Source: an uncultured Bacilli bacterium (GTDB lineage: Bacteria > Bacillota_I > Bacilli_A > RF39 > UBA660). Taken from it: a stretch of 46,742 nt of DNA. Both the position numbers and the translations under genes were made by a program. The notes below the pieces were generated by a model, which was given only the letters and a program-made list of their open reading frames with translations, had not been told where the DNA came from and made no database searches. The DNA lies in assembly GCA_947631205.1 (NCBI GenBank), contig CANRKL010000002.1, forward strand, positions 1 through 46,742, given 5' to 3'. Below are positions 5,067 to 44,122 of the stretch, in pieces (positions within the stretch are counted from its first letter, which is position 1; each line of letters starts with the position of its first letter).

Positions 5067-8000
5067 ATTGGAACAAAGAACAAGAATTAGCTATAAAAAC
5101 TACAGGAACAAACATGATAATAAGTGCCGGAGCCGGTTCTGGGAAAACGGCCGTTTTAACATCTCGTGTTATAAATCATCTTAAAAATGGCATTCACTTA
5201 AACGAATTATTAATACTTACATTTACTAATGAAGCTGCTCATGAAATGAAAAAAAGAATTGAAGACTTACTAAAAAAAGATGAAACGTTACAAGAAGAAT
5301 TAGATTATTTATATGAAAGCGAGATTACAACTTTTGACGCTTTTGCTTTAAAGTTAGTTAAAAAATATTATTACTTATTAAATATTCCTGAGAAAATTGA
5401 TATAACTGATGATTCTTTAATTTTTTTATTAAAAAAAGAAGTTTTGAATAATGTTTTAGAAAAATATTATCAAGAAAAAAATCCTTATTTTTGTTTATTA
5501 ATTGATAATTTGTGTTTAAAAGATGATAAGAATTTTGAAAATGATTTATTAAGAATTATTAATCATTTAGAATTAAAAAAAGATGCTTTATATTATTTAG
5601 ATAATTATATAGATAATTTTTATAATGATACTTTTATTGATAATATTTTACAAGTATATGAAAATATTATTTTAAAGAAAAAAGAAGAATTAAAAGAAAA
5701 ATATGAACAAGTTATAGAATATAGTAGTAAAGATTATCAAGATAAATTAGATATGGCTTTTAGTAATTGGTGGAACTCTAATACTTATGATGATTTAAGT
5801 GCCTTAACTAGCATTAAAATACCTTCTTTACCTAAAAACTCTAGTGATGAATTAAAATTAGCTAAAGAAAGTCTTAATGATACTTGGAAAACTTTAAAAG
5901 AATTATTACAAGTTAAAAGTAAGGAAGAATTAAAAAATATTTATTTAGAAACAAAAGAAACAACCAAAGTAATTATTCAAATTTTAAAAGATTTTTGGAT
6001 TATCTATACTAAAGAAAAACAAGAGAAAAATTATTTTGATTTTAGCTTAATTGCTAATTTATCTTTAAAAATATTAGAAGATTATCCAGATATTTTAGAA
6101 GAAACTAAGAAACGTTTTAAAGAAATTTTAATTGATGAATATCAAGATACTAATGATTTACAAGAAGATTTTATTAAAAAGATAGCTAATAATAATGTTT
6201 ATATGGTAGGAGATATTAAACAAAGTATTTATCGTTTTAGAAATGCTAATCCCTATTTATTTCAACAGAAATATGATGATTATAGTCAAAATAAAGGGGG
6301 AATGAAAATTGATTTAATAACTAATTATCGTTCTAAATATGCGGTTATAAATAATATTAATTTAATTTTTAATTCTTTGATGGACCATGATTTAGGAGGT
6401 GCTTCTTATGAGTCTCAACATCAAATGGTTTGCGGTATTGAAAATAGGGTGGAAAAAAACAATGAAATGGAAATATTAAATTATTCTAAAATAGATGAAT
6501 TTACGGAGGAAGAAATAGAAATATTTTTAATAGCTAAGGATATTCAAAAAAGAATTGATAGTAAAGCCTTAATTTATGATAAAAAAATAAATGATAAACG
6601 TAATTTAGCATATCAAGATTTTTGTATTTTATTAGATAGAAGTACTAGTTTTAATGATTATCAAAAAATATTTAACTACTTAAATATTCCCTTAAATATC
6701 TATCAAGATGAAACATTATCTAGTAATATTCATTTTCTTACTATAAAAAATATTTTTGTTCTTTTAAAGAAAATGTTTTTAAAAGAATATGATGATGATT
6801 ATATTTATTCTTTAGTATCTATTTCTAGGAATTTTTTGTTTAATTTAACCGATGAAGAAATATATAATTATAAAATTAATAATAATTGGTATCAAAGTAC
6901 TCCTTATAAAACTTTAACAAGTATTTTAGATAATGGTTGGAATTTAAATTTAATAGAAATTTATAATTTAATAATTGAAAAAACAAATTATTATGAAAAA
7001 ATGCTTAGTTTAGGTGATGTCTTAGCAAGTCAAGTTGTTTTAGATAAAATAAAAGAAATAATTAATTCTTATCAAAAATATGGTTATGATTTTATTAAGT
7101 TTTCTTCTTCAATAGATGATATTTTAAATGAAAATTTGCAAATTAAATATAAAAAAGATAATAATGGAATAGATGGAGTATCTTTAATGACAATTCATAA
7201 AAGTAAAGGCTTAGAGTTTCCTTATGTTTACTATGCTTCTTTATCTAAGAAATTTAATAAAAGAGAATTAAATGAAAAAATATTATTTTCTAATAAATAT
7301 GGAATTATTAGTCCTATATTTCAAGAAGGATTACAAGAAACTTTTTTAAAAACTATCTTAAAATATGAAGAAAATGAAGAAGAAATATCTGAGAAAATAA
7401 GATTATTTTATGTAGCTTTAACAAGAGCTAAAGAAAAAATGATTTTTGTAACATCTAATAAAAAACGTTTAGAAAGTCAAACTAATAAATTAATAATACC
7501 ATATATAGATAGATTAAAATGTACAAGTTTTAAAGATTTTTTAGATTTAATGGCTAATAATTTAAGGATTTATCAAAAAGAAGTTGATATAACCTCTCTT
7601 AATTTAACTAAAAATTATTTATACTATCAAGAAAATACTTTAGATGATTTACCAAATACTCCACTAGATGTTATAGAAATAAATTTATTAAATAAAGAAG
7701 AAAGTCCTAAAAAAATATCTAAAACAATCAAAAAATTATTGACTAAAGAAGAAAAAGAAAATATTAATTTAGGATTAGAATTCCATGAAGCTTTAGAATA
7801 TTTAGATTTTAAAAATCCTAATTATGATTTAATAAAAAATAAGTTTATATCTAAAAAAATTGAAGTGTTTTTAAATCAAGAATTAATTAAAGAAAATCTT
7901 GATGGAGAAATATATCATGAATATGAATATAACTATCAAGGACAAACAGGAATTATTGATTTATTAATTATTAAAGATGATAAAGCTATTATTATTGATT

Positions 8001-8143
8001 ATAAATTGAATAATGTTTTAGATGAAGCTTATATTAATCAATTAAAAAGCTATAAAGAGTTTATTTTAAATACTTTTCATAAAGAAGTTGATACTTATTT
8101 ATATTCTTTGATAGAAAGTAAGTTTACAAATACCTTAATATAG
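5063..8143 (+). CDS. addA: helicase-nuclease AddAB subunit A (UvrD/PcrA-type helicase plus C-terminal nuclease)
   Basis: 1026 aa. Walker A GAGSGKT, DEYQDTN, QSIYRFRNA, TIHKSKGLEF and YVALTRAKE helicase motifs. C-terminal nuclease block IIDLLI...IIIDYKLN. Confidence 0.9.
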   Translation: MNWNKEQELAIKTTGTNMIISAGAGSGKTAVLTSRVINHLKNGIHLNELLILTFTNEAAHEMKKRIEDLLKKDETLQEELDYLYESEITTFDAFALKLVKKYYYLLNIPEKIDITDDSLIFLLKKEVLNNVLEKYYQEKNPYFCLLIDNLCLKDDKNFENDLLRIINHLELKKDALYYLDNYIDNFYNDTFIDNILQVYENIILKKKEELKEKYEQVIEYSSKDYQDKLDMAFSNWWNSNTYDDLSALTSIKIPSLPKNSSDELKLAKESLNDTWKTLKELLQVKSKEELKNIYLETKETTKVIIQILKDFWIIYTKEKQEKNYFDFSLIANLSLKILEDYPDILEETKKRFKEILIDEYQDTNDLQEDFIKKIANNNVYMVGDIKQSIYRFRNANPYLFQQKYDDYSQNKGGMKIDLITNYRSKYAVINNINLIFNSLMDHDLGGASYESQHQMVCGIENRVEKNNEMEILNYSKIDEFTEEEIEIFLIAKDIQKRIDSKALIYDKKINDKRNLAYQDFCILLDRSTSFNDYQKIFNYLNIPLNIYQDETLSSNIHFLTIKNIFVLLKKMFLKEYDDDYIYSLVSISRNFLFNLTDEEIYNYKINNNWYQSTPYKTLTSILDNGWNLNLIEIYNLIIEKTNYYEKMLSLGDVLASQVVLDKIKEIINSYQKYGYDFIKFSSSIDDILNENLQIKYKKDNNGIDGVSLMTIHKSKGLEFPYVYYASLSKKFNKRELNEKILFSNKYGIISPIFQEGLQETFLKTILKYEENEEEISEKIRLFYVALTRAKEKMIFVTSNKKRLESQTNKLIIPYIDRLKCTSFKDFLDLMANNLRIYQKEVDITSLNLTKNYLYYQENTLDDLPNTPLDVIEINLLNKEESPKKISKTIKKLLTKEEKENINLGLEFHEALEYLDFKNPNYDLIKNKFISKKIEVFLNQELIKENLDGEIYHEYEYNYQGQTGIIDLLIIKDDKAIIIDYKLNNVLDEAYINQLKSYKEFILNTFHKEVDTYLYSLIESKFTNTLI

Positions 8144-8171
8144 GTTAAAATAGTAACCAATTAAAGAGGGG

Positions 8172-8870
8172 TTGATGAAAATGCCTTATATATTAATAAC
8201 TGGAGGAAGTAGAGGATTAGGAAGTTTTTTAGCTAAATATTTAGCAAAATATAATTATGGAATTATAATAAATTATAAAGAAAATATAAATGAGGCTATA
8301 AAAACTAAAGAAGAAATAGCTAAAATATCAAATATTCCTCCTTATATTTATCAAGCAGATATTACTAAAGAAAATGATGTTTTAAAAATGTTAGAATTTA
8401 TTAAAGAAAAAGAAATAAATTTAGAAGTAGTTATATTAAATGCGGGAATTGATATATACTTAGAAATGCCAGATAAAAATTATGAAACATTTAAAAAAAT
8501 ATTAGATGTTAATATTTTAGGAAATTTTAATGTAACTAAGATTTTTGGTGATTTTTTAGAAGAAAAGAAAAAGGGTAGTTTAATATATATTAATTCTGAT
8601 AATGCTATAGATAGAAATGATTATATATCTCTTGAGTATGATGTTTCTAAATCAGGATTACTTATGTTAGCTAAAGATTATTCTAAATATTTTAAGTGGG
8701 TAAAGGTTCATACTATTGCACCTGGTTGGTTAGATACTAGGATGAATAATTTTCCAGAATGGGTTAAAAAACAAATTAAATTTACAGATTTAAATTTAGT
8801 TGGGGAAGTAGTTTTAAAAGAAATAAAGTCAAAAGAAACAGGGAATGTGGTGATTGTAAGAGATGAATAA
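8172..8870 (+). CDS. short-chain dehydrogenase/reductase (SDR)
   Basis: TGGSRGLG cofactor motif and YDVSKSG (YxxxK) catalytic motif. The true start is probably ATG 8181 (MPYILITGG), 9 nt after SD gagggg. Confidence 0.8.
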   Translation: MMKMPYILITGGSRGLGSFLAKYLAKYNYGIIINYKENINEAIKTKEEIAKISNIPPYIYQADITKENDVLKMLEFIKEKEINLEVVILNAGIDIYLEMPDKNYETFKKILDVNILGNFNVTKIFGDFLEEKKKGSLIYINSDNAIDRNDYISLEYDVSKSGLLMLAKDYSKYFKWVKVHTIAPGWLDTRMNNFPEWVKKQIKFTDLNLVGEVVLKEIKSKETGNVVIVRDE

Positions 8871-10113
8871 TTTATTAAATATTAGTGAAAAAACATGGAA
8901 TACTTATCAAAAAGTATTACCTAAAATAAAGCCTTATTTGGATAAAGTTGATGAGGTATGTGAATATAATACTGCTAAAGTAATGCAAGCTTTTTGGGAG
9001 GCTAAAATTAGTGAAAGTCATTTTAATGAAACAACCGGTTATGGATATAATGATATAGGAAGAGATGCCATTGAAAAAGTTTATAGTTATCTATTTAAAG
9101 CTGAAAAATCTTTAGTTAGAACTCAATTTGTATCAGGAAGTCATGCTTTAGCTAAAACATTATTTGCCTTACTAAGACCTAATGATATCCTACTAAGTAT
9201 TACGGGACTACCTTATGATACTTTACATGAAGTAATAGGTATTAGAAAAAACTCTAGTTCTTTAATATCTTATGGAGTAAAATATGAACAAATAGATTTA
9301 ATAAATAATGATTTTGCGTATGAAGAGGTTAGAGATTCTTTACAAAAAAAAGATATTAAAGTAGTAACGATTCAAAGAAGTAAAGGATATGAAGATAGAA
9401 AAAGTATAGATATAACAAAGTTAGAAAAAGTAATTAAATTAATTAAAGAGGTAAGTCCTAAAACAATTGTGATGGTTGATAATTGTTATTGTGAATTAGT
9501 TAGTAAAAAAGAACCAATTGAAGTAGGAGCTGATTTAGTTGTTGGTTCTCTTATTAAAAATTTAGGTGGGGGAATATCTTCTAATGGAGGATATGTAGTA
9601 GGTTCATCTTCTTTAGTAGATAAAGTAGCTGAATCTTTATATTTACCAGGTGAGGGGATTCTTGTAGGACCAAGTTTAGGAGCTAATAAATTATTTTTAC
9701 AAGGACTTTATTTTGCCCCTTCTGTAGTATCAAGTGCTTTAAAAACATCTATTTTAACAAGTGCTATGTTAGAAGAATTAGGTTATAAAGTAAGTCCTAG
9801 ATATGATGAAGATAGAGTAGATATTGTTACTAATATTTATTTAAAAAATGAAAAAAATTTAATAAAATATTGTGAGGGAATTCAAAGTGGTTCAGCTATT
9901 GATGCTTTTGTAAGTCCTATTCCTAGTGATATGCCAGGATATGATGATAAAATTATTATGGCTAGTGGTTCTTTTACGCAAGGCTCTAGTATTGAACTTT
10001 CTTGTGATGGACCAATAAGAGAACCTTATATTGCTTTTCAACAAGGTGGACTTACATATGAAAGTGGTAAAATTGGGATTTTAAAAGCTATAGATAATTT
10101 AATAAAGGAATAG
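8863..10113 (+). CDS. YnbB-like PLP-dependent Cys/Met-metabolism family protein (aluminium-resistance family)
   Basis: 416 aa. Overall pattern (GYGYNDIGRD, VSGSHA, SLIKNLGGG with the putative PLP lysine) recalls the Met_gamma_lyase/YnbB family. Overlaps the SDR stop by 8 nt. Confidence 0.65.
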   Translation: MNNLLNISEKTWNTYQKVLPKIKPYLDKVDEVCEYNTAKVMQAFWEAKISESHFNETTGYGYNDIGRDAIEKVYSYLFKAEKSLVRTQFVSGSHALAKTLFALLRPNDILLSITGLPYDTLHEVIGIRKNSSSLISYGVKYEQIDLINNDFAYEEVRDSLQKKDIKVVTIQRSKGYEDRKSIDITKLEKVIKLIKEVSPKTIVMVDNCYCELVSKKEPIEVGADLVVGSLIKNLGGGISSNGGYVVGSSSLVDKVAESLYLPGEGILVGPSLGANKLFLQGLYFAPSVVSSALKTSILTSAMLEELGYKVSPRYDEDRVDIVTNIYLKNEKNLIKYCEGIQSGSAIDAFVSPIPSDMPGYDDKIIMASGSFTQGSSIELSCDGPIREPYIAFQQGGLTYESGKIGILKAIDNLIKE

Positions 10114-10115
10114 TT

Positions 10116-10808
10116 ATGAAAAAGAAATTAGATATATTATATGAAGATAAAAATTTATTAATTGTAAATAAAAGGGCTAATGTTTTAACAGTGGGGACTT
10201 TAAAAGAAAAAGAACATACCTTATACTATGAAGCAAGTGCTTATGTAAAAAAACAATATCCTAAAAATAAAGTATTTATTATTAATCGTTTAGATAAAGA
10301 AACATCAGGAATAGTTGTATTTGCTAAAAATATAGAAACTAAAAAATTATATCAAGATAATTGGAATAATTATGCCCTTGTAAGAGAATATTTAGCGATT
10401 GTTTGTGGAGTAGTTCCTAATAAAAAAGGTAGTTTAAAATCTTATTTGGCCGAGAATAAACGGTTAGAAGTTTACAAAACTAGTGATAAATATGGCAAAT
10501 TAGCTATAACTAATTATGAAGTATTAGGAAAAAATAAAAGTTATACATTATTAAAAATAAATATATTAACAGGAAGAAAAAATCAAATAAGATACCAATT
10601 AAGTGATTTTGGATATAAAATTGTTGGTGATAAAAAATATAAAGCTTTAAAAAATCCCATAAATAGATTAGGACTTCATGCTTCATTATTAAAATTAAAA
10701 ATAAAAAATCAAGATGTAATAATTACTTCTAAAATACCTAAAGAATTTAAATTAATGTTTGCAAAGGAGATAGAAGATTATGGAAAGAATTCAAAAAGTA
10801 ATTGCTAG
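10116..10808 (+). CDS. RluA-family pseudouridine synthase
   Basis: 230 aa. Catalytic motif NRLDKETSGIVVFAK (HRLD..TSG type). No S4 domain. Confidence 0.85.
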   Translation: MKKKLDILYEDKNLLIVNKRANVLTVGTLKEKEHTLYYEASAYVKKQYPKNKVFIINRLDKETSGIVVFAKNIETKKLYQDNWNNYALVREYLAIVCGVVPNKKGSLKSYLAENKRLEVYKTSDKYGKLAITNYEVLGKNKSYTLLKINILTGRKNQIRYQLSDFGYKIVGDKKYKALKNPINRLGLHASLLKLKIKNQDVIITSKIPKEFKLMFAKEIEDYGKNSKSNC

Positions 10809-11493
10809 TTGTGGTTATTGTAGTAGAAGAAAAGCAGAAGAATTATTAAAAGAAGGGAAAATAAAAGTAAATGGCAAGATAGTTACTGATTTAGGATTTA
10901 AAGTAAATTATAATGATGAAATAATAATAAATGGAGAAGTATTAGATGCCAAAGAAGATAAAGTCTATTATTTATTATATAAGCCAAGTAAAGTAGTATC
11001 ATCTGTTAAAGATGATAAACAAAGAGCAACTGTAGTTGATATGATAGATACTAAAAAAAGAATTTATCCAGTTGGCAGATTAGATTATGACACAACAGGA
11101 TTATTACTTTTAACCAATGATGGTATTTTAACAAATAGACTTACTCATCCATCAAATGAAGTAGAAAAGATGTATTTAGCTAAAATAAAAGGGATACTTT
11201 CTTATCAAGAAGTTAAAGAATTAAAAAAAGGAATAGTAATTGAAGATAGAAAAGTAATACCTACTTATTTAAAAGTTAAAAGTATTAATAAAAATAGTAA
11301 TACAACCAATGTTTTAATTGGAATAGTAGAGGGACGTAATCACATAATAAAAAAGATATTTTCAGCAATAAATCACCCAGTATTAAAATTAAAAAGAGAA
11401 ACTTATGCTTTCTTAAATTTAGATAATTTAAAAGTAGGAGAGTATAGAGAGTTGACAGTAAAAGAAGTAAAAAAATTATATTCTTTAAAATAG
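10780..11493 (+). CDS. rluB: RsuA/RluB-family pseudouridine synthase with N-terminal S4 domain
   Basis: 237 aa. S4-like N-terminus (MERIQKVIASCGYCSRRKAEELLKEGKIKVNG). Catalytic GRLDYDTTGLLLLTNDG. AAGGAG SD. 29-nt overlap with the upstream gene. Confidence 0.85.
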   Translation: MERIQKVIASCGYCSRRKAEELLKEGKIKVNGKIVTDLGFKVNYNDEIIINGEVLDAKEDKVYYLLYKPSKVVSSVKDDKQRATVVDMIDTKKRIYPVGRLDYDTTGLLLLTNDGILTNRLTHPSNEVEKMYLAKIKGILSYQEVKELKKGIVIEDRKVIPTYLKVKSINKNSNTTNVLIGIVEGRNHIIKKIFSAINHPVLKLKRETYAFLNLDNLKVGEYRELTVKEVKKLYSLK

Positions 11494-11660
11494 GAAACAA
11501 TAGGTGTAAATTTAGATGAAAAGAGTAATTTACTATAAAAAGAAAACTTTATGAAATAAAATGATAAAAAAATTCCATAAAAGTTTTTTCTCATAAATTA
11601 AGGTATGCTAAAAAAGGAAGGTAATTTATAAAAATATTCAACTGTGTATTTTAATAAATT

Positions 11661-11689
11661 TTGACAAAATTCAAATAATTTTATATAAT
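11661..11689 (+). promoter_or_regulatory. sigma-A type promoter (TTGACA-17-TATAAT) for the alarmone synthetase gene
   Basis: Perfect TTGACA at 11661-11666, a 17-nt spacer, and perfect TATAAT at 11684-11689. Confidence 0.6.
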
Positions 11690-11748
11690 ACAATTCATAG
11701 AAGTAATGCTTATATTGTGTTGCTTCTTTTTTGGAGGTAAATTTATTA

Positions 11749-12354
11749 ATGAATGAAGAAATATATTTAAAATATCAATATGCTTTAAAAATGCTTAATA
11801 CAGAAATTGAAATATTAATTGATAATTTTGTATTTCATAATGGTTATAATCCTGTTGAGCATATTAAATCAAGAATTAAAACAGAAGATAGTATTAGAAA
11901 AAAATTGGAGAAAAAAGGTTTAGAATATAATGAAAAAAATATTTTATTAAATATACCTGATGTAGTAGGAATAAGGATTGTAGTATCTTTTTTAAGTGAT
12001 GTTTATGATATAGTATCTATGATTAATAGGTCTAATAATTTAATCATAAAAAAAAGAAAAGATTATATATCTCATCCTAAAGAATCAGGGTATACATCTT
12101 ATCATTTAATTGTTTTAGTGCCAATATATTTAGAAAATCATGTAGAATATATTGAATCAGAGATTCAAATTAGGACAATTGCTATGGATTTTTGGGCTTC
12201 TTTAGACCATAAAATTAGATATAAGTTTCCTAATGAAATTCCCGCTCCTGTATCAGAAGCTATTGAAAATTATGCTTTAGATATAAAAGAATTAGACCAA
12301 AAGATGTATAAATTAAATCAAATTGTAGATAAATATCAAAATAAATCAACTTAG
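11749..12354 (+). CDS. small alarmone synthetase (RelQ/RelP-type GTP pyrophosphokinase)
   Basis: RelA/SpoT synthetase-only core (VVGIRIVVSFLSDV, SGYTSYHLIV, EIQIRTIAMDFWASLDHKIRYK). Start trimmed from TTG 11731 to ATG 11749, which follows SD GGAGG at 11733-11737. Confidence 0.85.
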   Translation: MNEEIYLKYQYALKMLNTEIEILIDNFVFHNGYNPVEHIKSRIKTEDSIRKKLEKKGLEYNEKNILLNIPDVVGIRIVVSFLSDVYDIVSMINRSNNLIIKKRKDYISHPKESGYTSYHLIVLVPIYLENHVEYIESEIQIRTIAMDFWASLDHKIRYKFPNEIPAPVSEAIENYALDIKELDQKMYKLNQIVDKYQNKST

Positions 12355-13587
12355 ATATTCTATAATAGAGTAGGCTGCAACTCTTCCACTTTTAGAAGCA
12401 TTGCTAACTGTATTTATTTCATTTGCAACATCTCCTCCAGCGAAGACATTGGAAATAGATGTTGCTTTTTTTTCATCTACTTTAATGGTTCCATTATCAT
12501 TAGTTATTATATTTAAAGAAGATATTAATTTGGAATTAGGTGTAGAGCCAATTGTAAAAACAACATAATCAACTTTAATATTTTTTTCAGTATTATAAAT
12601 ATTTTTTAGATTACCATCTATTTCTTCAGTTTTAACTATAGTTATTTTTTCTACATTATTTTTTCCAATAATTTGTGAAACATTAGTATTGAAAAGAAAC
12701 TTAATACCTTCTTTTTTAGCATTTTTAAGTTCTTTTTGGTCAGCTTTCATATCTTTTGGACTTCTTCGGTAAATTATAATAACATTTTTAGCACCCAGTC
12801 TTTTTATTGTTCTAGCTGTGTCCATCGCGACATTTCCACCACCAACAATAGCAACATTTTTATCTAAATAATTTGGATGTTTTTGATTTTCTAAAAGTTC
12901 ATTTCCACCATATACACCATTTAAATCAGTTCCTTTTATATCCATAAATTTAGATTGATTAGTGCCAATTCCTAAAAATATTGCATTATAATCTTTTTGT
13001 AAATCTTCTAAAAAAATATTTTTTCCTAATTCTTTGTTATATTCTACTTTAATATCTAAATCTAAGATTCTTTTAATAGTCATATCTAAAGCTTTTCTAT
13101 TAAGACGGAATTCTGGAATACCATGTCTTAAAAGACCACCTAAGTAATCATGTTTTTCATAAATAGTTACAGAAATATTATTTCTAGCTAAAAAAGCCGC
13201 ACAAGAAAGTCCGGCAGGTCCTCCACCAATAACGCAAACTTTTTTTTGATGTAATTTTTCATTTTTTGTGTGTTTAATAGGCCAGTTGTTTAGATTAGCT
13301 AAATCACCAATATAAGCTTCTAATGCTCCAATTTTAATAGAACGGTCAGTGTAGTGTTTAATACATTTACCTTGACATAATTTTTCATGAGGACAAATAC
13401 GACCACATATTGATGGTAAGACTGTTGTTTCATCTAAAACATGATAAGCTTCTTCAAAGTTTTTTTCTTTAATTAATCTAATAAATTCTGTAATATGATT
13501 TTCTAAGGGACAACCTTTTTGACATGGACTATGTAGACAACCCTCACAGTAATTTGCTTCATCATTTAATTTTTTTAATTCTTTCAT
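12346..13587 (-). CDS. GltD-like NAD(P)H-dependent FAD oxidoreductase with N-terminal Fe-S cysteines
   Basis: 413 aa. N-terminal Cys clusters (CEGCLHSPCQKGCP, CGRICPHEKLCQGKC). Two Rossmann motifs (VCVIGGGPAGLSCA and VAIVGGGNVAMD). C-terminal GGDV. Confidence 0.75.
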   Translation of the reverse strand: MKELKKLNDEANYCEGCLHSPCQKGCPLENHITEFIRLIKEKNFEEAYHVLDETTVLPSICGRICPHEKLCQGKCIKHYTDRSIKIGALEAYIGDLANLNNWPIKHTKNEKLHQKKVCVIGGGPAGLSCAAFLARNNISVTIYEKHDYLGGLLRHGIPEFRLNRKALDMTIKRILDLDIKVEYNKELGKNIFLEDLQKDYNAIFLGIGTNQSKFMDIKGTDLNGVYGGNELLENQKHPNYLDKNVAIVGGGNVAMDTARTIKRLGAKNVIIIYRRSPKDMKADQKELKNAKKEGIKFLFNTNVSQIIGKNNVEKITIVKTEEIDGNLKNIYNTEKNIKVDYVVFTIGSTPNSKLISSLNIITNDNGTIKVDEKKATSISNVFAGGDVANEINTVSNASKSGRVAAYSIIEYLS

Positions 13588-13640
13588 ATCAATCCCTCTA
13601 TCATAATTATTATAATATATTTTAAGAGATTTTTATAGAA

Positions 13641-14318
13641 TTAATTTTGTTTAATAATAGTTACTTTATTACTTGTATCTAATGTTAAAAGAGCAATATT
13701 TTCAATAGATATGTTTTCTTTTTTTAAGGTTGTTTTTAACCAATTTTTATTTTTTTTAGCTCTTTTTAGTTCTTCTTCATCTAAAGTTCCATCAACAATA
13801 ATTAAGTAGTTCATTGATTGTTTAGAACTATTTTTTTGAATGTTTTCTTTAATATCTTTACTAGTTAAAGGTTGAGAATTACCTTTTAATAAAATAGAAA
13901 TATCACCAGATGGTTCTTGGATAGCGCATTCTAAATCATTAATATCAAAACAACCTTTTAATCGACAATTTTCTAAAACTTTAGCAACACTTAATTTACA
14001 TTTATGTAAGTTTTCATAAATAAATTGATTATTTTCAAATAAGACTAATGGTTCACCATCAATTAATTCAGCAGTTTTATGACTTTGATAAGTTATATAA
14101 GAAGATATATAACCAATAATTCCAAAGATAACTAGCGCAATAACGCCATCTAAAAGTGGGGTATTAAAGTCAATTATGCTATCACCTGCAATAGAACCTA
14201 TAGTAATTCCAATAATATAATCATATAAGGTTAATTGTTTAATTTGTTTTTTTCCTAAAAATTTCATAATAATAAATAAAACAATAAAAATTATTATTGA
14301 ACGATATACAACTTCCAT
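13641..14318 (-). CDS. DUF421/YetF-family membrane protein
   Basis: 225 aa. Three N-terminal TM helices, then a soluble C-domain. The layout and the KKQIKQLTLYDYI motif are typical of the YetF/YdfS family of spore formers. Confidence 0.7.
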   Translation of the reverse strand: MEVVYRSIIIFIVLFIIMKFLGKKQIKQLTLYDYIIGITIGSIAGDSIIDFNTPLLDGVIALVIFGIIGYISSYITYQSHKTAELIDGEPLVLFENNQFIYENLHKCKLSVAKVLENCRLKGCFDINDLECAIQEPSGDISILLKGNSQPLTSKDIKENIQKNSSKQSMNYLIIVDGTLDEEELKRAKKNKNWLKTTLKKENISIENIALLTLDTSNKVTIIKQN

Positions 14319-14350
14319 TTAAATCACCTAATATTATTATGGGTTAGGGT

Positions 14351-14383
14351 AAAAAAAATATAACTTAAAAGTATTTAAGTTAT
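14351..14383 (-). terminator. rho-independent terminator of the collagen-like gene
   Basis: Perfect 10-bp stem (14360-14369 / 14374-14383) with a 4-nt loop. On the minus strand it is followed by A then T8 (14351-14358). The stem overlaps the stop codon. Confidence 0.75.
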
Positions 14384-15366
14384 TCTATTTCATCAAGTTT
14401 TTTGATACTTAGGGAAGCAGTAATTCCAGAATTAAAGGTAATAGTTACATTATCTTCGGTAGCAGATAAGACCATATCTAAGGTATCCCCTGCTTTAAGT
14501 TCTATTATGGTGTTACAAAAAAAGCTAATTGTTCCATTGACATTGGTTTTTTTAGAGATAACAGTAGTTGGAATCATTTCTAAATTTTCTCTAATCATGA
14601 CTGTTATAACAGATATTTTATTAACATCAATATTAAGAGTATAGTTTACTTCATAGATGCCATCTTGTTCTAAAGTAATGGAATTTGTGGGAGTATTAAT
14701 GACATTGATATTAGACATTTCTTCTATTAGAGGTATTTGTATCCAAAAGCCTGCTCCACCAGTATCTAATACGTTGGTTAAATTATTATATTTTCCGCCA
14801 TAAGCACTTAAAAGTGCACTTCCAGCAGGTCCTGTTGGGCCTTGTAATCCTCTTTCTCCTGGAGGTCCTTGGATACCTTGCAAGCCTTGAATTCCTTGGG
14901 GTCCTTGTATTCCTGGTGGACCTTGAATGCCTTGGGGTCCCGTTGGTCCTATATCGCCTTCTGGACCTCTAATTCTTCCAACATTTATCCATTTATTATC
15001 ATTGGTAGACCAAATGTAAAGGTCATTTCCTACTAAATAACTGTCACTTTTATTACCGTTTGGATGTTCTTGCTCTAATTCATTTAAATTATCATATGAA
15101 CCCATTATAGTTACACTTGTTCCAGCAGGTCCTGTTGGACCTATATTACCAGTTGGACCTATAGGGCCTATTGGTCCCGTAGGACCAATTATACCTTGTA
15201 AGCCTTGAATGCCTTGAGGACCAGTGGGACCAATTTTACCATCAGCTCCAGTGGGGCCAGTAGGACCTAAAAGATTAGAATTAACAATTTGATAACAACA
15301 AAATGAATTGTATTTTTCCTTAGCACATTTAACTTTTTCTAAGGCTTTTTTATAATTATCATTCAT
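14380..15366 (-). CDS. collagen-like (G-X-Y) repeat protein with BclA/C1q-like C-terminal domain
   Basis: 328 aa. Two uninterrupted runs of 16 G-X-Y triplets (aa 34-82 and 134-182, both ending GPTGPAG) separated by a 51-aa non-collagen insert. The C-terminal ~145 aa is beta-rich ([12 protein letters not shown]..., AGDTLDMVL) like BclA-type exosporium/TNF-like heads. Confidence 0.85.
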
Positions 15367-15423
15367 ATTTATTCATCCTTCTATTATAAAATATGTGAAA
15401 GTAGGGGATTGGTTAAAAATTGC

Positions 15424-15452
15424 TTGCAATTTTCATGATAATTTGCTATATT
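15424..15452 (+). promoter_or_regulatory. candidate sigma-A promoter for tRNA-Gly (TTGCAA-17-TATATT)
   Basis: TTGCAA at 15424-15429, a 17-nt spacer, and TATATT at 15447-15452, about 10 nt before the tRNA 5' end. Confidence 0.5.
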
Positions 15453-15462
15453 ATATTTGCTT

Positions 15463-15537
15463 GCAGGTGTGGTTCAACGGCTAGAATGCAACCTTGCCAA
15501 GGTTGAGACGGGGTTTCGACTACCCTCACTTGCTCCA
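15463..15537 (+). tRNA. tRNA-Gly (anticodon GCC), CCA encoded
   Basis: Hand-folded cloverleaf of 75 nt. Acceptor GCAGGTG/CACTTGC, D-arm GTTC-AACGGCTA-GAAT, anticodon arm CAACC-TTGCCAA-GGTTG, variable AGAC, T-arm GGGGT-TTCGACT-ACCCT, discriminator T plus CCA. Confidence 0.9.
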
Positions 15538-15550
15538 ATGTGATTAATTA

Positions 15551-15578
15551 CTTACACTTTTGGTGTGAGTTTTCTTTT
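15551..15578 (+). terminator. rho-independent terminator after tRNA-Gly
   Basis: Stem CTTACAC/GTGTGAG (7 bp with one G-U), loop TTTTG, followed by TTTTCTTTT. Confidence 0.6.
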
Positions 15579-15723
15579 GACTTAAAATCATTATTTTAAA
15601 TTAGTATTTTTGTCAAAAATAAAAATACACTTACAAATTAGCATAGTATATTTTAATAATTTTTATTATTATTTAAAGTGATTTTCATTTATTAAATGGT
15701 CCAATATCTTAGTTTATAAATAT

Positions 15724-16095
15724 TTATATTTGTTTTGAATTTTTCTCTAGTCTTTTTTCTATCTCTTCAATGCTTGGTAAAGTATTTTCTAAGAATTCAG
15801 GTATTTCAGATAATATTTTATATTCACTTACACCAATAGGTTTATTTATATCTTTTAAAGCTAATTCTGCTGTTACTTTCTTTTTATCTTTGCAAATTAA
15901 TATTCCAAACGTTATTTGCAGCATGATGTTGCAAAATTATCCTGGAACCATGAAGCACATTTTTTTGATATTTTGATTTGAGTAATAAGCATAATTAAAT
16001 CCACCTAAATTATAATAATTAACAGGTTTTTCTTTATTAAAATCTTTAGGGTATAGTGTTAAATATTTTTTGAAATAAAAAAAGTTAGTTATGAT
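15724..16095 (-). pseudogene. 3' remnant of a YhcG/DUF1016-type PD-(D/E)XK nuclease gene, interrupted by an in-frame stop
   Basis: The 66-aa ORF reads ITFGILICKDKKKVTAELALKDINKPIGVSEYKILSEIPEFLENTLPSIEEIEKRL. This is the characteristic C-terminus of DUF1016 proteins (..IGLILCK.KN..V.EYAL....PIGV.EY.L...LP..L...LPSIEEIE..L). The same frame continues upstream through TAA (15937-15939) as ...NLGGFNYAYYSNQNIKKMCFMVPG. The N-terminal two-thirds of the gene is absent. Confidence 0.6.
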
Positions 16096-17045
16096 TTATT
16101 AATTTTATTTTTAATAGATTTAACTAACTTTATGTTTGATTTTATTTCTTCTTCTTTATATCCTGTAAACAGAGATATTTTTTTTATGTCACTATTAGAA
16201 GAAAGACTATATCTTCCGGCATAAATAATTTTACTAATTGCTATTAATGTCTCATTTTGATTTTCGGTATTTGATATTTTTTCTCTTACACTTTCTCCAA
16301 CAATTTTAATTATTCTTTTAGCTTCTTCAGCTAATTTTATATTATTTTCATTATCATTTATTTCTCCTAAAGGGTATAACTTATTAACTCTTTGATATAA
16401 AGCTAGCGATAAGGGCATTTTAGTTTCTTTATATAAACTAAATCCATCATCTATTGAAATACCAAACTCTGCTAAAATAGACATCATTGTTTGAATTTTT
16501 ATATTAATATCTTTATTACTAAAATCAGGATTTTCATTATAAAATAATTTATATATTGTTATTAATGCTTTATCATCATCAGTTAAAATTACTTTTTTAG
16601 TGTCATTTAAATTATAAATTTGCTCTATCATTTTATTTATTCCTTTAGATATTAAATTAATATCTGAATAGTTTTTTATGTTAGTTTCATGATTATTATA
16701 AGTTAATGATATTCCACTTGTAGGTTCATATTTAATTTGGAATTCTTTTATTTCATTATTATTTTTTTCATATTCTTTTAAAAGATAATTTTCATATTTT
16801 ACTAGTTCTGAACCATTTTTATCTTGATAAGAAACGATTAATAATTTTTCTTCACATTCTTTCATTATTGTTCTTATAATAGTAATATTTTCTATCATAG
16901 AATTATGTTTATGATTATTTAGAAAATTTTCTAATAAAAGTTTTATTTTATCTAAATTAATGTTATCATTTGCTATACCATTATATTTTATTTTTATACT
17001 ATCATTTTCATAATTTAATGTTTTATCAATATTTATTGATTTCAT
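16089..17045 (-). CDS. hypothetical protein (orphan, Asn/Lys/Ile-rich, no TM segment seen)
   Basis: 318-aa ORF with strong SD GAGGAGG 7 nt before the ATG. Lies 54 nt downstream of the second sigma gene on the same strand. I do not recognise a family. Confidence 0.6.
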   Translation of the reverse strand: MKSINIDKTLNYENDSIKIKYNGIANDNINLDKIKLLLENFLNNHKHNSMIENITIIRTIMKECEEKLLIVSYQDKNGSELVKYENYLLKEYEKNNNEIKEFQIKYEPTSGISLTYNNHETNIKNYSDINLISKGINKMIEQIYNLNDTKKVILTDDDKALITIYKLFYNENPDFSNKDINIKIQTMMSILAEFGISIDDGFSLYKETKMPLSLALYQRVNKLYPLGEINDNENNIKLAEEAKRIIKIVGESVREKISNTENQNETLIAISKIIYAGRYSLSSNSDIKKISLFTGYKEEEIKSNIKLVKSIKNKINKS

Positions 17046-17099
17046 TTCTGTAACCTCCTCAGTGTAATTTATATTAAAAGTATAACATACAAAATTAGT

Positions 17100-18335
17100 T
17101 TATTTTAATTTTTTATTTTTTAAAGTTAAAGATAAATTTTCATTTGCAGATGTTAAGTCAATGTTATAAATATTAATTCCATATTGATTTAAAATGTTAT
17201 CTTTAAATGTAGAATAAAGATTAGAATCTTTGTTAGCTATTTTTTCTTTTAATGATTGGTTTAAATTATTTAATTTTGAAATATCTATACCTAATTTATT
17301 TGCTAAGTCACTTTGGGTATAAGTATATTTATCTAAATATAGTAGATAATATAATTTTTGTTCTAAAAGATTTAATTCATTTTTCATGTATAAAAATAGA
17401 ACAATATGATGAGGATTTAATGGTGTTTTTTTTAAGCAATATAAATGAGCTTGTTCATTTTTAATGATATGTAATAATTTATTTCTTATTGAGTTATTGC
17501 CTAAAATATTTTTACATTTTATTTTAGCTTTTCTTTCAATGGTTCTGATTCCTTCGCCTGACATATTAAAATAAGGAACTAGTTCTTTTAAAGTTAGAGG
17601 ATTTTCAATTAATAAGTGATAGTACATAATAAAATATTCATCAGGTCTTAATAATTCTTTTAAAGCTATATAAAAAAGGTTATTGTCGATATTTTTGTCG
17701 ATATTATCAAAATCAAATTTATCATCAGCAATATATTCTTCCATTTCTTTATCATCATCTAATATTTTTTGATTTATACTTATTATGTTTTGATTAAGGG
17801 CTTTTTTTAGGGAATCTAAAGTTTGAGGAGCTATTTGTAGTTTATCTTTAATAATATCATCCGTAAGTAGCATTCTATTGTCATCAAAAGTTTTTTTAAG
17901 TTTGTAATATCTATTCATCATATCAACCATTGGGATAGGTTTTCTTATTTCATTTTCTTCTACATAGATACTTCTTAAAATTTGTTTTTTAATTTTATAA
18001 TAAGAATGAGTAGAGAAGGCTCCTAAATCAGGATTATAATCTTTTAAAGCATCAATAAGTCCCATATTTCCTTCTTGAATTAAATCTAAAATTTGTAAAT
18101 GGTTAACTTTTTTACGATAGGAAAAAGCAATATTAACAACTAAATGCAAGTTACTATTTATTAAAGCTTCTTTAGCTAATTCATCTTTATCTTCTATATA
18201 TTTTTTATAAAGATTTTTTTGCTCTTCCATGGATAATACAGGAAACTTGGATATTTCATTTATATATTGTTTTAGACTTTTATTACTAGATTGACTTAAT
18301 AATTCATCACTAGTTTCAATATTTTGATTACTCAT
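17100..18335 (-). CDS. sigma-70 family factor, SigA-like regions 1.2-4 plus ~120-aa C-terminal extension (paralog 2)
   Basis: 411 aa. YINEISKFPVLSMEEQKNLYKKY (1.2/2.1), LDLIQEGNMGLIDALKDY..FSTHSYYKIKKQILRSI (2.2-2.4), IRKPIPMVDMMNRY (3.0), RPDEYFIMYYHL..GIRTIERKAKIKCKN (region 4). A second HTH-like block follows: LEQKLYYLLYLDKYTYTQSDLANKLGIDISKLNNLNQSLKEKI. The ATG overlaps the upstream stop (ATGA). Confidence 0.8.
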   Translation of the reverse strand: MSNQNIETSDELLSQSSNKSLKQYINEISKFPVLSMEEQKNLYKKYIEDKDELAKEALINSNLHLVVNIAFSYRKKVNHLQILDLIQEGNMGLIDALKDYNPDLGAFSTHSYYKIKKQILRSIYVEENEIRKPIPMVDMMNRYYKLKKTFDDNRMLLTDDIIKDKLQIAPQTLDSLKKALNQNIISINQKILDDDKEMEEYIADDKFDFDNIDKNIDNNLFYIALKELLRPDEYFIMYYHLLIENPLTLKELVPYFNMSGEGIRTIERKAKIKCKNILGNNSIRNKLLHIIKNEQAHLYCLKKTPLNPHHIVLFLYMKNELNLLEQKLYYLLYLDKYTYTQSDLANKLGIDISKLNNLNQSLKEKIANKDSNLYSTFKDNILNQYGINIYNIDLTSANENLSLTLKNKKLK

Positions 18336-19531
18336 AAGTTCCTCCTTAAACTGTTATTTTCTTGACCTAATAGGTTTATGTTATAGATGTTTGTTTTATA
18401 TTTTTTGATAGTTTGATTATAGAAAAGTTCATAGTCATCTGTATTAGAAAAACTAGTTACTAATTTTTCTCTTAAAGATATAAGGCTATTTTGAACTTCT
18501 TCTTGTGGAATATTATACAATGTAGAATATTCTTCTATAGTATATTTAAAATCACCAAAAAGGATTTGATAATATAATTCTTTTTCAAGATTATTTAATG
18601 AATCTTTTACATATAAAAAATTTATAATGTCTGTTGGTGAGATAGGTTCATAATGAAGATTATTAGTATTTGGATAAGGTAAATTATGGCTAGTGATATT
18701 TTGATAAATTTTTTTTAATTTAAGCATAATTTTATTTTCAAGATGTCTTATTTTGTTAGTGTTAGATTTAAAGGTAGAGGCAAGGTATCTTGAGGTTACA
18801 AATTCATTTTTTAATAAACGATTATATAGTATAAAATATTCTAAAGGAGTTAGACTCTTTTTTAAAGAAAATAAAATATATTTATCATTTAAATCATTTA
18901 TAATGTTTTCAATTGGGGAAGAAGTACTTGGAATAAAATCTTGTAATTCACTAGTGTTTTCTTCTCCAACGCTTTGATTCATGCTAATAAAAGTTTGATT
19001 ATAAGTTCTTTTAACAAGTCCTAACATATATGGAGTGATACTTAACATAATGCAAATAATTTCATCATTGACATTTTTGTATTCTTCAATAATTTTTTTA
19101 TATTTATTAACTAATTCAATAGTTTTACTTGGTTTTCTAATTTGACAATCTAAATTAGAAATACATTTTAAAATTTTATTTTTTATCCAAAATTCAGAAT
19201 AAGTAGTAAAAGCTCCAAGACTTGGTTCATATTTTTCAATGGCATAAATAAGACCAATATTACCTTCTTGAATTATATCTAATATTTGTAAATTTTTAAT
19301 TACTTGTTTGTATTGAAAAGCAATTTTAACGACAAAACGAAGATTACATTTTATTAAAGTTTCTTTAGCTAATTCATCCTTATCTTCATGATATTTTCTA
19401 GCTAATTCTTTTTGCTCTTCAATTGATAAAATAGGATATTTTGATATTTCATCAATGTATGCCTTATAACTATCATCATTAAAAAAATCACTAAATTTTT
19501 CATTAAATATCTTGTTATTTTTTTCACACAT
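18332..19531 (-). CDS. sigma-70 family factor, SigA-like regions 1.2-4 plus C-terminal extension (paralog 1)
   Basis: Start trimmed to ATG 19531, 5 nt after AGGTGA; the track's GTG 19540 lies inside the SD. YIDEISKYPILSIEEQKELARKY, LDIIQEGNIGLIYAIEKY..FTTYSEFWIKNKILKCI, IRKPSKTIELVNKY, TPLEYFILYNRL..IRHLENKIMLKLKK, then LEKELYYQILFGDFKYTIEEYSTLYNIPQEEVQNSLISLREKL. TGTTATAAT extended -10 on the minus strand at 19550-19558. Confidence 0.8.
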   Translation of the reverse strand: MCEKNNKIFNEKFSDFFNDDSYKAYIDEISKYPILSIEEQKELARKYHEDKDELAKETLIKCNLRFVVKIAFQYKQVIKNLQILDIIQEGNIGLIYAIEKYEPSLGAFTTYSEFWIKNKILKCISNLDCQIRKPSKTIELVNKYKKIIEEYKNVNDEIICIMLSITPYMLGLVKRTYNQTFISMNQSVGEENTSELQDFIPSTSSPIENIINDLNDKYILFSLKKSLTPLEYFILYNRLLKNEFVTSRYLASTFKSNTNKIRHLENKIMLKLKKIYQNITSHNLPYPNTNNLHYEPISPTDIINFLYVKDSLNNLEKELYYQILFGDFKYTIEEYSTLYNIPQEEVQNSLISLREKLVTSFSNTDDYELFYNQTIKKYKTNIYNINLLGQENNSLRRNL

Positions 19532-19637
19532 AAAAATCACCTAGCGTATATTATAACAGAAAAATAAAAAAAAGCTACTTAAAATTCAAACGATTGTTTA
19601 TGTAGAGAAAAAAACTCAAAAAAATTTGAAAAAAAAG

Positions 19638-19666
19638 TTGACAAACAAAAGTGAATCGTTTAATAT
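19638..19666 (+). promoter_or_regulatory. sigma-A type promoter (TTGACA-17-TAATAT) driving a short non-coding transcript
   Basis: Perfect TTGACA at 19638-19643, a 17-nt spacer, and TAATAT at 19661-19666. It is divergent from the sigma-operon promoter. Confidence 0.55.
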
Positions 19667-19671
19667 ATGAG

Positions 19672-19771
19672 CTACCAATTCACTTAAAGGCGAATTGGTG
19701 CTAGTATCACACTAGTCAACCCCTTTTTATTCTTTTTAGTAGTTACCTTAATTGGTAACTACGCTTTTTTT
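19672..19771 (+). ncRNA. candidate ~100-nt small RNA (promoter-to-terminator unit without an ORF)
   Basis: Hairpin 19674-19681/19692-19699 (8 bp), hairpin CTAGT-ATCAC-ACTAG (19701-19715), single-stranded UCAACCCCUUUUUAUUC, then a perfect 9-bp terminator stem (19739-19747/19754-19762) followed by T7. recG appears to have its own TATAAT at 19799-19804. Confidence 0.35.
19739..19771 (+). terminator. rho-independent terminator upstream of recG
   Basis: GTAGTTACC / GGTAACTAC perfect 9-bp stem, 6-nt loop, GC then T7. Confidence 0.8.
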
Positions 19772-19824
19772 ATTATTTGTTTTTTTTAAAAAAATTTGTA
19801 TAATTAAAATGTCAAGGTGGTAAT

Positions 19825-42650: not shown

Positions 42651-43442
42651 ATGACTATATATTTAGATGCCCTTTTTTTTCTTAATTTCTATTTCGACTT
42701 TCTTTTATTATTGACTTTAAGTGTTACCTTAAAAAGGAACGCTAGAATTACTCGCATTACTCTCAGTAGTTTAATCGGGTCTCTATCAATATTAGTCTTA
42801 TTCTTCCCCCTTAATAATTTTTGGTTATTTATTTTTAAAATTGTCTTAGCCATTATTATGAATATTGTAGCTTTTGGTCTTAAAGATAAAAAATATACAA
42901 TAGAAAACATTAGTTATTTTTATATGATAAGTACCATTTTAGGAGGATTTTTATATTACCTTAACTTAAGTATGAATGAACAATTTAATGGATTTGTTTT
43001 TGTCTATGAAGATTTTTCATACAACTATGCTTTTTTACTTATTCTATCCCCACTTATTTTACTTTTATATATCAAACAAAGAAAAACATTTAGAGAATAT
43101 CAAAATATTATTCCTCTTGAAATAAAGTTTAAAAGTGGAGAAATTATTAAGATTAATGGATTTTTAGATACAGGTAATAGATTAATTGACCCAGTTAGTA
43201 AAAAGAAAATAATTTTAATAAATAAAAAAAAGATAGAGCATATTAAAGATAAAAAATATTTATATGTACCATATAATTCTTTAAATCATCATGGATTAAT
43301 AGAATGCTTAAGAATTGAATATATTATTATTAAAGATGTAAAGTGTAAAAATTATTTAATTGGGATAAGTACGGATAATTTACTTAAAAATGGAATAGAT
43401 TGTGTTTTAAATGCTTATTGTTTGGAGGAGATAAAATGTTAA
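42651..43442 (+). CDS. spoIIGA: sigma-E processing peptidase SpoIIGA
   Basis: 263 aa. Five N-terminal TM helices. C-terminal aspartic-protease motif GFLDTGNRLIDPVS. Immediately upstream of sigE. Confidence 0.88.
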   Translation: MTIYLDALFFLNFYFDFLLLLTLSVTLKRNARITRITLSSLIGSLSILVLFFPLNNFWLFIFKIVLAIIMNIVAFGLKDKKYTIENISYFYMISTILGGFLYYLNLSMNEQFNGFVFVYEDFSYNYAFLLILSPLILLLYIKQRKTFREYQNIIPLEIKFKSGEIIKINGFLDTGNRLIDPVSKKKIILINKKKIEHIKDKKYLYVPYNSLNHHGLIECLRIEYIIIKDVKCKNYLIGISTDNLLKNGIDCVLNAYCLEEIKC

Positions 43443-44122
43443 AAAAGATTATTAATTGGTTAAAAGCTAAGTATAATGAATGTTTTTTTATAGGTAGTAC
43501 CGATAAATTACCACCACCTTTACCTAAAGAAGAAGAATTATCACTACTAATTGAATCTAAAAAAGGGAATATGGAAGCAAAAAATAAACTTATTGAACAT
43601 AATTTAAGATTAGTGGTTTTTTTAGCTAAAAAATATGAAAGTACTGGTTATGAATTAGAAGATTTAGTAAGTATTGGGTCTATTGGCTTAATTAAAGGAA
43701 TAGAAACATATAAGATTGATAAAAATATTAAATTAGCAACTTATGCTTCAAGATGTATTGCTAATGAAATATTAATGTTTTTAAGAAAAAATAAAAAAAG
43801 AAAGAAAGAAATATCTTTAGAAGACAGTTTAAATTATGATGCTGAGGGAAATGAACTTCGGCTAGAAGATGTCATTGGAACTGATATAGATTTAGTAAGC
43901 GATGCTTTTGAAAGTAAACAAGAAAAAAAATTTATAGCTAGTGAATTAAATAAGTTAAATCCACGAGAAAAACAAATAATGATTTTAAGATATGGCTTAA
44001 ATAATACAGAATCTTATACTCAAAAAGAAGTAGCTGATATGTTAGGAATAAGTCAATCTTATATATCAAGAATTGAAAAAAAAGTAATTAAAAATTTAAA
44101 AGAGTTAGTGGAAATGGATTGA
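43436..44122 (+). CDS. sigE: sporulation sigma factor SigE (pro-sigma-E)
   Basis: ATG 43436 follows GGAGGAG. Pro-sequence then FIGSTDKLPPPLPKEEE. NLRLVVFLAKKY, DLVSIGSIGLIKGIETY, KLATYASRCIANEILMFLRK. Region 4 TQKEVADMLGISQSYISRIEKK. Confidence 0.93.
   Translation: MLKKIINWLKAKYNECFFIGSTDKLPPPLPKEEELSLLIESKKGNMEAKNKLIEHNLRLVVFLAKKYESTGYELEDLVSIGSIGLIKGIETYKIDKNIKLATYASRCIANEILMFLRKNKKRKKEISLEDSLNYDAEGNELRLEDVIGTDIDLVSDAFESKQEKKFIASELNKLNPREKQIMILRYGLNNTESYTQKEVADMLGISQSYISRIEKKVIKNLKELVEMD

Follow-up and report, generated by a model that had tools for sequence, protein, structure and literature searches.

A tandem pair of probable alternative sigma factors carrying a diverged second copy of region 4 in an uncultured Bacilli bacterium

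Few groups of bacterial regulators are as well classified as the sigma factors, and novel domain arrangements are seldom met in them. Paired factors are represented by SigO-RsoA of Bacillus subtilis and gp33-gp34 of SPO1, in which each partner supplies part of a sigma, while PhyR is a response regulator whose degenerate sigma2-sigma4 part, resembling that of extracytoplasmic function (ECF) sigma factors, serves as a protein-binding decoy. Fused C-terminal regulatory domains, SnoaL-like or TPR, are carried by ECF sigmas of the ECF41, 42 and 56 types, for example SigG1 (PMC7730460). Here, we analysed a contig of 46,742 nt from an uncultured Bacilli bacterium (CANRKL010000002.1, assembly GCA_947631205.1), the entire contig being referred to as the window, in which two adjacent minus-strand genes, named sigma1 and sigma2, encode sigma-like proteins and are followed by a 318-amino-acid (aa) open reading frame (ORF), named ORF318 (Table 1). 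To keep genes and domains apart, the domain sigma2 is called region 2 below. An earlier interpretation made from the letters of the DNA (the sequence-only reading) had proposed that the three genes could form a self-contained transcription switch. With moderate confidence, we instead favour the view that the pair are tandem-duplicated alternative sigma factors of an unnamed, fast-evolving family of gut Bacilli, in which a pseudo-sigma4 domain is a built-in module, and that ORF318 is unrelated to them.

Both proteins are complete sigma-70-family factors that span regions 1.2 to 4 without region 1.1, as the sequence-only reading had perceived. Pfam Sigma70_r2 was matched in both beyond its gathering score (E 1e-12 and 1.5e-9) and Sigma70_r1_2 was matched in sigma1 (E 8e-7) and sub-threshold in sigma2, with regions 3 and 4 sub-threshold in both proteins. 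The NCBIfam models of RpoD, RpoS and RpoH gave an unbroken alignment starting at region 1.2 and extending through the whole of region 4 (residues ~20-280, E ~1e-30; residues 22-280 of the 402-aa sigma1 ORF), and a phmmer search of the PDB aligned residues 18-275 of sigma2 continuously to the solved SigA of S. aureus and B. subtilis (E 4e-21, 8x6f, and 8e-21). Additionally, an AlphaFold model of sigma2 was built from a 46-sequence family alignment (mean predicted local distance difference test, pLDDT, 83.8); its best Foldseek matches were SigA, RpoS and sigma32 in holoenzyme structures, and a search with the whole model returned ordinary sigmas only. Just ~20 residues precede region 1.2 and no Sigma70_r1_1 match was obtained, hence region 1.1 is absent. 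The QEG core of the core-binding motif D[LI]IQEGNxGL is invariant or nearly so across the family alignment, and the sigma4 recognition helix is basic (consensus G-V-T-K/R-Q-R-I-R-Q-I-E-K-K-A-L-K-K, the position R-I/V-R being variable); motif and helix are both conserved across 46 aligned members. The aromatic residues of the melting region are in part replaced, FW and YK standing where SigA has WW, an alteration that had been correctly spotted by eye.

An alignment of sigma1 with sigma2 that takes in the extension described below shows 39% identity over 384 columns (E 1e-68), the DNA of the two is 70% identical across 300 nt in region 2, and the proteins are sisters in a neighbour-joining tree, albeit a weak, star-like one with long branches; taken together, these results point to an old tandem duplication, with regions 2.4 and 4.2 now differing between the copies. 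Because each protein possesses region 1.2, region 2 with its DLIQEGNxGL motif, sigma3, and sigma4 with its basic recognition helix, we infer from homology that both would associate with core RNA polymerase and that each would serve promoters of its own.

The feature that sets these proteins apart is a conserved C-terminal extension of ~115-120 aa fused directly after sigma4. Neither Pfam nor NCBIfam holds a model that covers this domain; Pfam searches with the extensions alone, whether one at a time or for 28 members, produced nothing beyond sub-threshold hints of helix-turn-helix (HTH), Sigma70_r4 and GerE models, the last two being the commonest, and a profile of the extension alignment retrieved nothing significant from the PDB. 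Comparison by hhalign with the family's own region 4 returned a probability of 95.9% (E 5e-9, 61 columns), placing sigma2 residues 309-369 onto 217-277. In the AlphaFold model, the block mean pLDDT of the sigma2 extension exceeds 90 at residues ~300-390 and is ~80 at 280-299, and the helices lie at residues 282-300, 308-320, 323-334, 341-348, 352-367 and 371-391. The second to fifth of these repeat the pattern of sigma4, whose helices span residues 209-279, and on either side of this core lies a further conserved helix, a linker (282-300) before it and a C-terminal one (371-391) after it, the latter ending in a conserved Y..IY motif. A second region-4-like module is therefore supported by the hhalign result and by the helix pattern of a confident model. 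A search of genome contigs with a profile of three extensions found only the known relative and, in addition, a ParB HTH of a Syntrophorhabdaceae metagenome-assembled genome (MAG; L017 5738-5860) that is 34% identical over 41 residues; the latter was dismissed as a chance HTH resemblance, mirroring the weak Pfam HTH_ParB match of sigma2.

The same profile was searched exhaustively against 1.84 billion cluster representatives, and the extension was detected in 154 clusters at E<=1e-3, 76 of them at E<=1e-10, with the window proteins at E 5e-51 and 1.7e-45. It almost always occupies residues ~280-400, right after an N-terminal sigma module, and the entries without this module look N-terminally truncated. 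Among the 149 representatives for which length was tabulated, 46 are of 350-450 aa and 53 of 1,100-1,300 aa. The long forms (~1,200 aa) open with the sigma-plus-extension unit and continue with more sigma4/HTH-like modules, 2-7 being detectable per protein, some of which pass the Pfam thresholds for Sigma70_r4, r4_2 or HTH; NCBIfam has no specific model for these proteins. Intermediate proteins of ~625-672 aa contain two copies of the extension, and in the neighbour-joining tree long forms branch among short ones, some of the 'short' entries being truncated by contig ends. The names found for 20 clusters that were looked up are generic ('sigma-70 family RNA polymerase sigma factor [Bacilli bacterium]') or the automatic JGI label 'primary sigma factor', and a literature search uncovered no account of giant sigma factors or of sigmas in which region 4 is repeated. 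This unnamed, rapidly diverging family has so far been met in uncultured gut Bacilli of low GC (guanine plus cytosine) content, and its architecture is a new variant among alternative sigma factors. Tandem arrays are recurrent, and copy number (one to three), position and length are fluid between genomes; three tandem genes at locus L018 occupy the slot held by a single gene at the syntenic L022. Family sigmas were also observed near DNA-repair genes, namely uvrA (L018, L022), uvrB (L025), recG (window) and recU (L019), which may be chance.

The breadth of this family bears on the possibility that the pair are decaying, functionless duplicates, or pseudo-sigmas. Their extreme divergence, the partial replacement of the melting-region aromatics and the presence of a decayed gene nearby would all fit such a fate; however, neither ORF is interrupted, each has a strong ribosome-binding site, and the two are coupled through ATGA; moreover, the family has kept its core-binding motif and its sigma4 recognition helix, as described above, and the extension is retained in 154 clusters and folds with high confidence in AlphaFold. 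We therefore regard decay as very improbable.

The sequence-only reading had taken the extension for an extra DNA-binding HTH. As a second module of region-4 type, it stands; DNA binding is doubtful since the contact residues have been replaced. Its recognition-equivalent helix reads x-E-E-Y-x-x-L-x-x-S-L-K-x-K-I, the K/R-Q-R-V-R-Q of sigma4 having given way to acidic or neutral residues, and mean HTH net charge across the family is +3.5 for sigma4 versus -0.2 for the extension (-3 in sigma1, +2 in sigma2). The extension is a diverged sigma4 copy that has lost its basic DNA-contact residues, and this loss makes it likelier to serve as a regulatory or protein-contact module than as an additional reader of the -35 element. 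This view of the pseudo-sigma4 as a built-in module carries low to moderate confidence; as a mimic of sigma4, it could dock on RNA polymerase, on domains of the sigma itself or on a partner. Alternatively, the extension would act as a second head that reads DNA, binding an extra upstream promoter element and making the sigma its own activator, with the long forms reading arrays of sites. Its HTH fold is homologous to sigma4, modules of the long forms pass the Pfam thresholds given above, and the sigma2 extension is positively charged and gives weak ParB-HTH matches, all of which would suit such a reader; the -35-contact equivalents, which across the family are E-E-Y and not R/K-Q-R-V-R-Q, and the charges of the family mean and of the sigma1 extension, speak against it, and we consider it unlikely.

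Several points weigh against the regulatory-module view of tandem alternative sigmas. The extension may bind DNA, especially that of sigma2, whose HTH is mildly basic and resembles ParB HTHs weakly, and the later long-form modules that pass HTH thresholds speak for DNA binding by some of the family's modules at least. The branches of the neighbour-joining tree are long and its shape is star-like. Core-polymerase binding and promoter specificity of sigma1 and sigma2 are presumed from homology, and a canonical sigA (in a dnaG-sigA locus) presumably lies elsewhere in the genome, a point argued indirectly from one contig.

With respect to class, every curated equivalog or subfamily model is missed by wide margins, which upholds the earlier claim that the proteins belong to no named Bacillota class. 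The RpoD models NF006666 and TIGR02393 gave 113 and 95 bits against a cutoff of 572 and 117 and 108 bits against 354, respectively, and the SigK and SigF models gave 38-48 bits against cutoffs of 252-299; the sole NCBIfam model passed by the two proteins was the superfamily-level TIGR02937. These low scores do not represent a general failure of the models in an AT-rich genome, because SigE encoded in the same window, used as a positive control, scores 310 bits against a cutoff of 339 (NF006158). Nor do the proteins consist of region 2 and sigma4 alone, as ECF factors do, given that region 1.2 is significant in sigma1 and region 3 is aligned to RpoD/SigA. Judged by these profiles, both proteins lie far from every curated sigma class. 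MzaA, the sigma-70 protein of the MZA anti-phage system, was a candidate from PADLOC and NCBIfam that was rejected: the sigma module alone aligns, at profile positions ~430-700, with 82 and 90 bits against a cutoff of 800.

A further possibility is that one of the pair is a very divergent primary (housekeeping) sigma of the organism. The best profile and structure matches are indeed of the RpoD/SigA type across regions 1.2-4, one family member bears the JGI label 'primary sigma factor', and the present conclusions are drawn from one contig. Nevertheless, it appears unlikely that either gene is a housekeeping sigma, because thousands of homologues ('Bacilli bacterium' where named) match the FtsZ of this contig at 75-91% identity, whereas the best non-self full-length sigma homologues are ~36-41% identical. 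A search of 5.8 billion proteins yielded a single further full-length homologue of sigma2, P0002 (36% identical), from the rabbit-gut MAG 'uncultured Bacilli bacterium Lapin-030 bin6'. Furthermore, region 1.1 is missing, the scores against RpoD models remain at 95-117 bits for cutoffs of 354-572 where the in-window SigE nearly reaches its own, the family is present in two copies here and in one or three at differing chromosomal sites in other genomes, it is missing upstream of recG in relatives, and the pair does not stand in a dnaG context. Of the explanations considered, we find this one the least probable.

ORF318 had been regarded as an orphan and as a dedicated partner of the two sigmas. 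Neither description survived: it belongs to a family of >200 homologues (43-64% identical, ~327 aa, mainly from human-gut assemblies, no Pfam domain), no ORF318 homologue was found at any of seven other family-sigma loci examined, and no sigma gene was present in either of two ORF318-homologue contexts inspected. The sequence-only reading had also made conservation of the sigma-sigma-ORF318 trio as a unit decisive, and the trio was encountered only on contigs of the same organism. ORF318 is thus an unrelated neighbour and not a partner of the sigma pair; as a dedicated partner is unsupported, so too is a self-contained switch of two sigmas and a partner. The AlphaFold model of ORF318 is confident (pLDDT 88.7, predicted template modelling score 0.85), with beta-sheet in its N-terminal part and helices in its C-terminal part; no structural match to it was found in PDB or BFVD, and the protein has no Pfam, NCBIfam, PADLOC or significant PHROG match and no phage match. 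A 354-aa gene downstream of the L025 sigma was tried as a distant ORF318 relative and discarded (hhalign probability 0.5%). It was additionally observed that a DUF1016/YhcG nuclease fragment follows the ORF318-family gene in two of three contexts, those of the window and L013-15.

The sigma pair lies on the chromosome, upstream of recG on the opposite strand, within a minus-strand block (12.3-19.6 kb) in which GC skew is reversed or flat inside an otherwise plus-strand, positive-skew contig. At the closest recG relative (L027, RecG 58% identical) a pseudouridine synthase gene is directly upstream of recG, and in other relatives yetF is; in the window, 9.0 kb separate the end of the pseudouridine synthase gene from the start of recG. 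Most of the block has therefore, on the evidence of this gene order, been inserted or rearranged. None of 80 metagenomic recG loci had a family sigma, the extension or ORF318 within a distance of 8 kb, and since relatives have other genes upstream of recG, the sigma locus is accessory and variable, in agreement with what had been surmised from its surroundings.

The sequence-only reading had further envisaged a mobile-element or phage origin, and a takeover module for transcription in which both sigmas and ORF318 act together was accordingly weighed. In its favour are the adjoining tRNA and decayed nuclease genes, the lack of the locus in relatives, the TraG-like and reverse-transcriptase neighbours of the family member at L024, and the ability of ORF318 homologues to occupy defence or mobile islands. 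Against it, no integrase was present at the locus and no att-like direct repeat of the tRNA end marked an island boundary; none of the viral contigs searched carries the extension; no phage or plasmid record covers >=80% of sigma2; and ORF318 lacks a phage match and adjoins no other family sigma examined. The neighbours of other family loci are plainly chromosomal (EF-Tu, uvrA, uvrB, tsaD, pgsA). Similarly, there is no compositional signature: the greater AT-richness that had been claimed is marginal (GC content 21.2% versus a window mean of 24.3%, with 7.8% of same-size windows equally low), and GC content at third codon positions equals that of housekeeping genes. A takeover module thus appears quite improbable, and tandem-duplicated alternative sigmas remain the favoured explanation of the pair.

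On rescanning, the ORF coordinates and motifs quoted earlier were correct, including the ATGA overlap, the GAGGAGG and the 54-nt gap, as was the presence of an adjoining tRNA and a decayed nuclease gene (Table 1). The longest sigma1 ORF in the ORF scan (18332..19540, minus strand, 402 aa) begins with a GTG at 19540; the likely start is the ATG at 19531, 5 nt past AGGTGA, and the same start is called on independent assemblies.

Table 1. Positions of the sigma pair, its neighbours and the comparison loci
Locus	Feature	Coordinates	Strand	Basis or setting
Window	sigma1, 399-aa sigma-70-family protein from ATG	18332..19531	(-)
Window	sigma1 sigma module, regions 1.2-4 (~residues 20-276)	18704..19474	(-)	NCBIfam RpoD/RpoS/RpoH alignments; Pfam r1_2, r2
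Window	sigma1 C-terminal extension, family-defining pseudo-sigma4 domain (residues 277-399)	18335..18703	(-)	profile search, P0241, E 1.7e-45
Window	sigma2, 411-aa sigma-70-family protein, paralogue of sigma1	17100..18335	(-)
Window	sigma2 sigma module, regions 1.2-4 (residues 18-280)	17496..18284	(-)	phmmer to SigA 8x6f/7ckq (residues 18-276); Foldseek to SigA/RpoS/sigma32
Window	sigma2 C-terminal extension (residues 281-411)	17103..17495	(-)	profile search; AlphaFold
Window	sigma4-like core of sigma2 extension (residues 309-369)	17229..17411	(-)	hhalign vs family's own region 4
Window	sigma1/sigma2 junction	18332..18347	(-)	AAGGAGG 18341-18347, 5 nt before the sigma2 ATG, then 4-base ATGA start/stop overlap 18332-18335
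Window	ORF318, 318-aa gene of a separate widespread uncharacterised family	16089..17045	(-)	54 nt after sigma2; GAGGAGG ribosome-binding site 17054-17060
Window	YhcG/DUF1016-type nuclease C-terminus, 66-aa fragment (YhcG_C), decayed gene	15724..15924	(-)	ORF scan and domain match
Window	tRNA-Gly(GCC)	15463..15537	(+)	tRNA scan of window
Window	Minus-strand block: pyridine-nucleotide oxidoreductase, YetF, BclA-like, YhcG fragment, ORF318, sigma2, sigma1	12346-19540	(-)	ORFs, GC skew
L001	One family gene, P0002			between femAB-like and zip
L019	One family gene, 1,216 aa			between pgsA-like and U32 peptidase; recU nearby
L022	One family gene, 625 aa	3678-5555		between tsaD and uvrA; rabbit-gut MAG
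L018	Three tandem family genes of 1,052, 672 and 449 aa, last two overlapping by 4 nt	6800-13365		slot before uvrA, syntenic with L022; rabbit-gut MAG
L025	One family gene			two genes before uvrB
L024	One family gene			among TraG-like and reverse-transcriptase genes
L013-15	ORF318 homologue			greA-ORF-DUF1016 fragment (124-aa DUF1016_N)-clpB
L010-12	ORF318 homologue			variable island with SMODS, HNH, DUF6602 and Mob_Pre genes

A promoter scan was uninformative in this AT-rich window, with 42 promoters found versus 41.7 expected. Between the starts of sigma1 and recG (19638-19775, plus strand), a promoter-like TTGACA-17-TAATAT is followed by a stretch of ~100 nt folding into three hairpins (minimum free energy -31.2 kcal/mol, z = -5.4 versus shuffles), the last of which (19739-19772) is a terminator-like stem with a T-run. 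A search of Rfam with the 19638-19775 stretch gave no match at E<=1, and the stretch is a candidate small RNA or recG leader.

Elsewhere in the window, ftsA-ftsZ are followed on the plus strand (42651-44122) by a canonical sporulation cluster of spoIIGA (TIGR02854, E 4e-34, under its cutoff) and sigE (43400-44122), and a 234-aa ORF without NCBIfam match (44159-44863) occupies the place expected of sigG. The spoIIGA-sigE cluster, together with a BclA-like collagen protein (14380-15366) and YetF/DUF421 (13641-14318), suggests that the host is one of the low-GC Bacilli and forms spores or once did so. A class B RNase P RNA (45257-45603, plus strand, 262.9 bits) fits a Bacillota chromosome.

For the window itself, the outcome is more modest than a three-gene switch, which is not a unit: it is an accessory pair of alternative sigmas. 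The wider family, at present defined by sequence only, comprises at least 154 clusters with a sigma4-derived C-terminal domain and giant multi-HTH members, and, being confined so far to uncultured gut Bacilli, it may help to explain lineage-specific regulation in organisms not yet grown. As a tentative proposal, to which we would give less than even credence, these proteins would constitute an undescribed sigma class in which a full sigma is fused to sigma4-derived modules (2-7 detectable), the first being a non-DNA-binding mimic that acts in cis or contacts RNA polymerase or partners, and in which the ~1,200-aa forms would combine a sigma and a multi-site DNA-binding activator in one polypeptide, providing a new promoter-recognition wiring that evolves by rapid duplication in gut Bacilli. 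Such long forms, if so constituted, would blur the boundary between sigma and activator.

Compared with described systems, the pair shares with the group 2/3 alternative sigma-70 factors (RpoS, RpoH, SigB/F/G type) the domain order over the first ~280 residues and the absence of region 1.1, but falls far under every curated cutoff and carries after sigma4 a conserved, ~115-aa sigma4-derived domain that is absent from those classes, some members of its family reaching ~1,200 aa. In MzaA, by contrast, the sigma module sits at the C-terminus of a ~700-aa protein, and no Mza genes are found near the window pair, whose neighbours are recG, ORF318 and a tRNA. SigO-RsoA and gp33-gp34 resemble the pair as two adjacent, co-transcribed sigma-related genes; however, each window gene encodes a complete protein of regions 2, 3 and 4, and relatives have one or three copies. 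PhyR offers a likeness of principle only, as a sigma-derived fold without DNA-contact residues that could serve protein contacts; it is not itself a sigma, and no anti-sigma partner is evident at the window locus. The ECF sigmas with C-terminal extensions provide an analogy, likewise one of principle, of a sigma with a C-terminal domain in cis that is possibly self-regulating, but ECF factors have region 2 and sigma4 only, whereas the window sigmas add regions 1.2 and 3 and bear a sigma4 copy instead of SnoaL or TPR. If the pseudo-sigma4 does regulate in cis or contact RNA polymerase, it would represent a new mode of sigma control, comparable in principle to these ECF extensions or to sigma mimicry.

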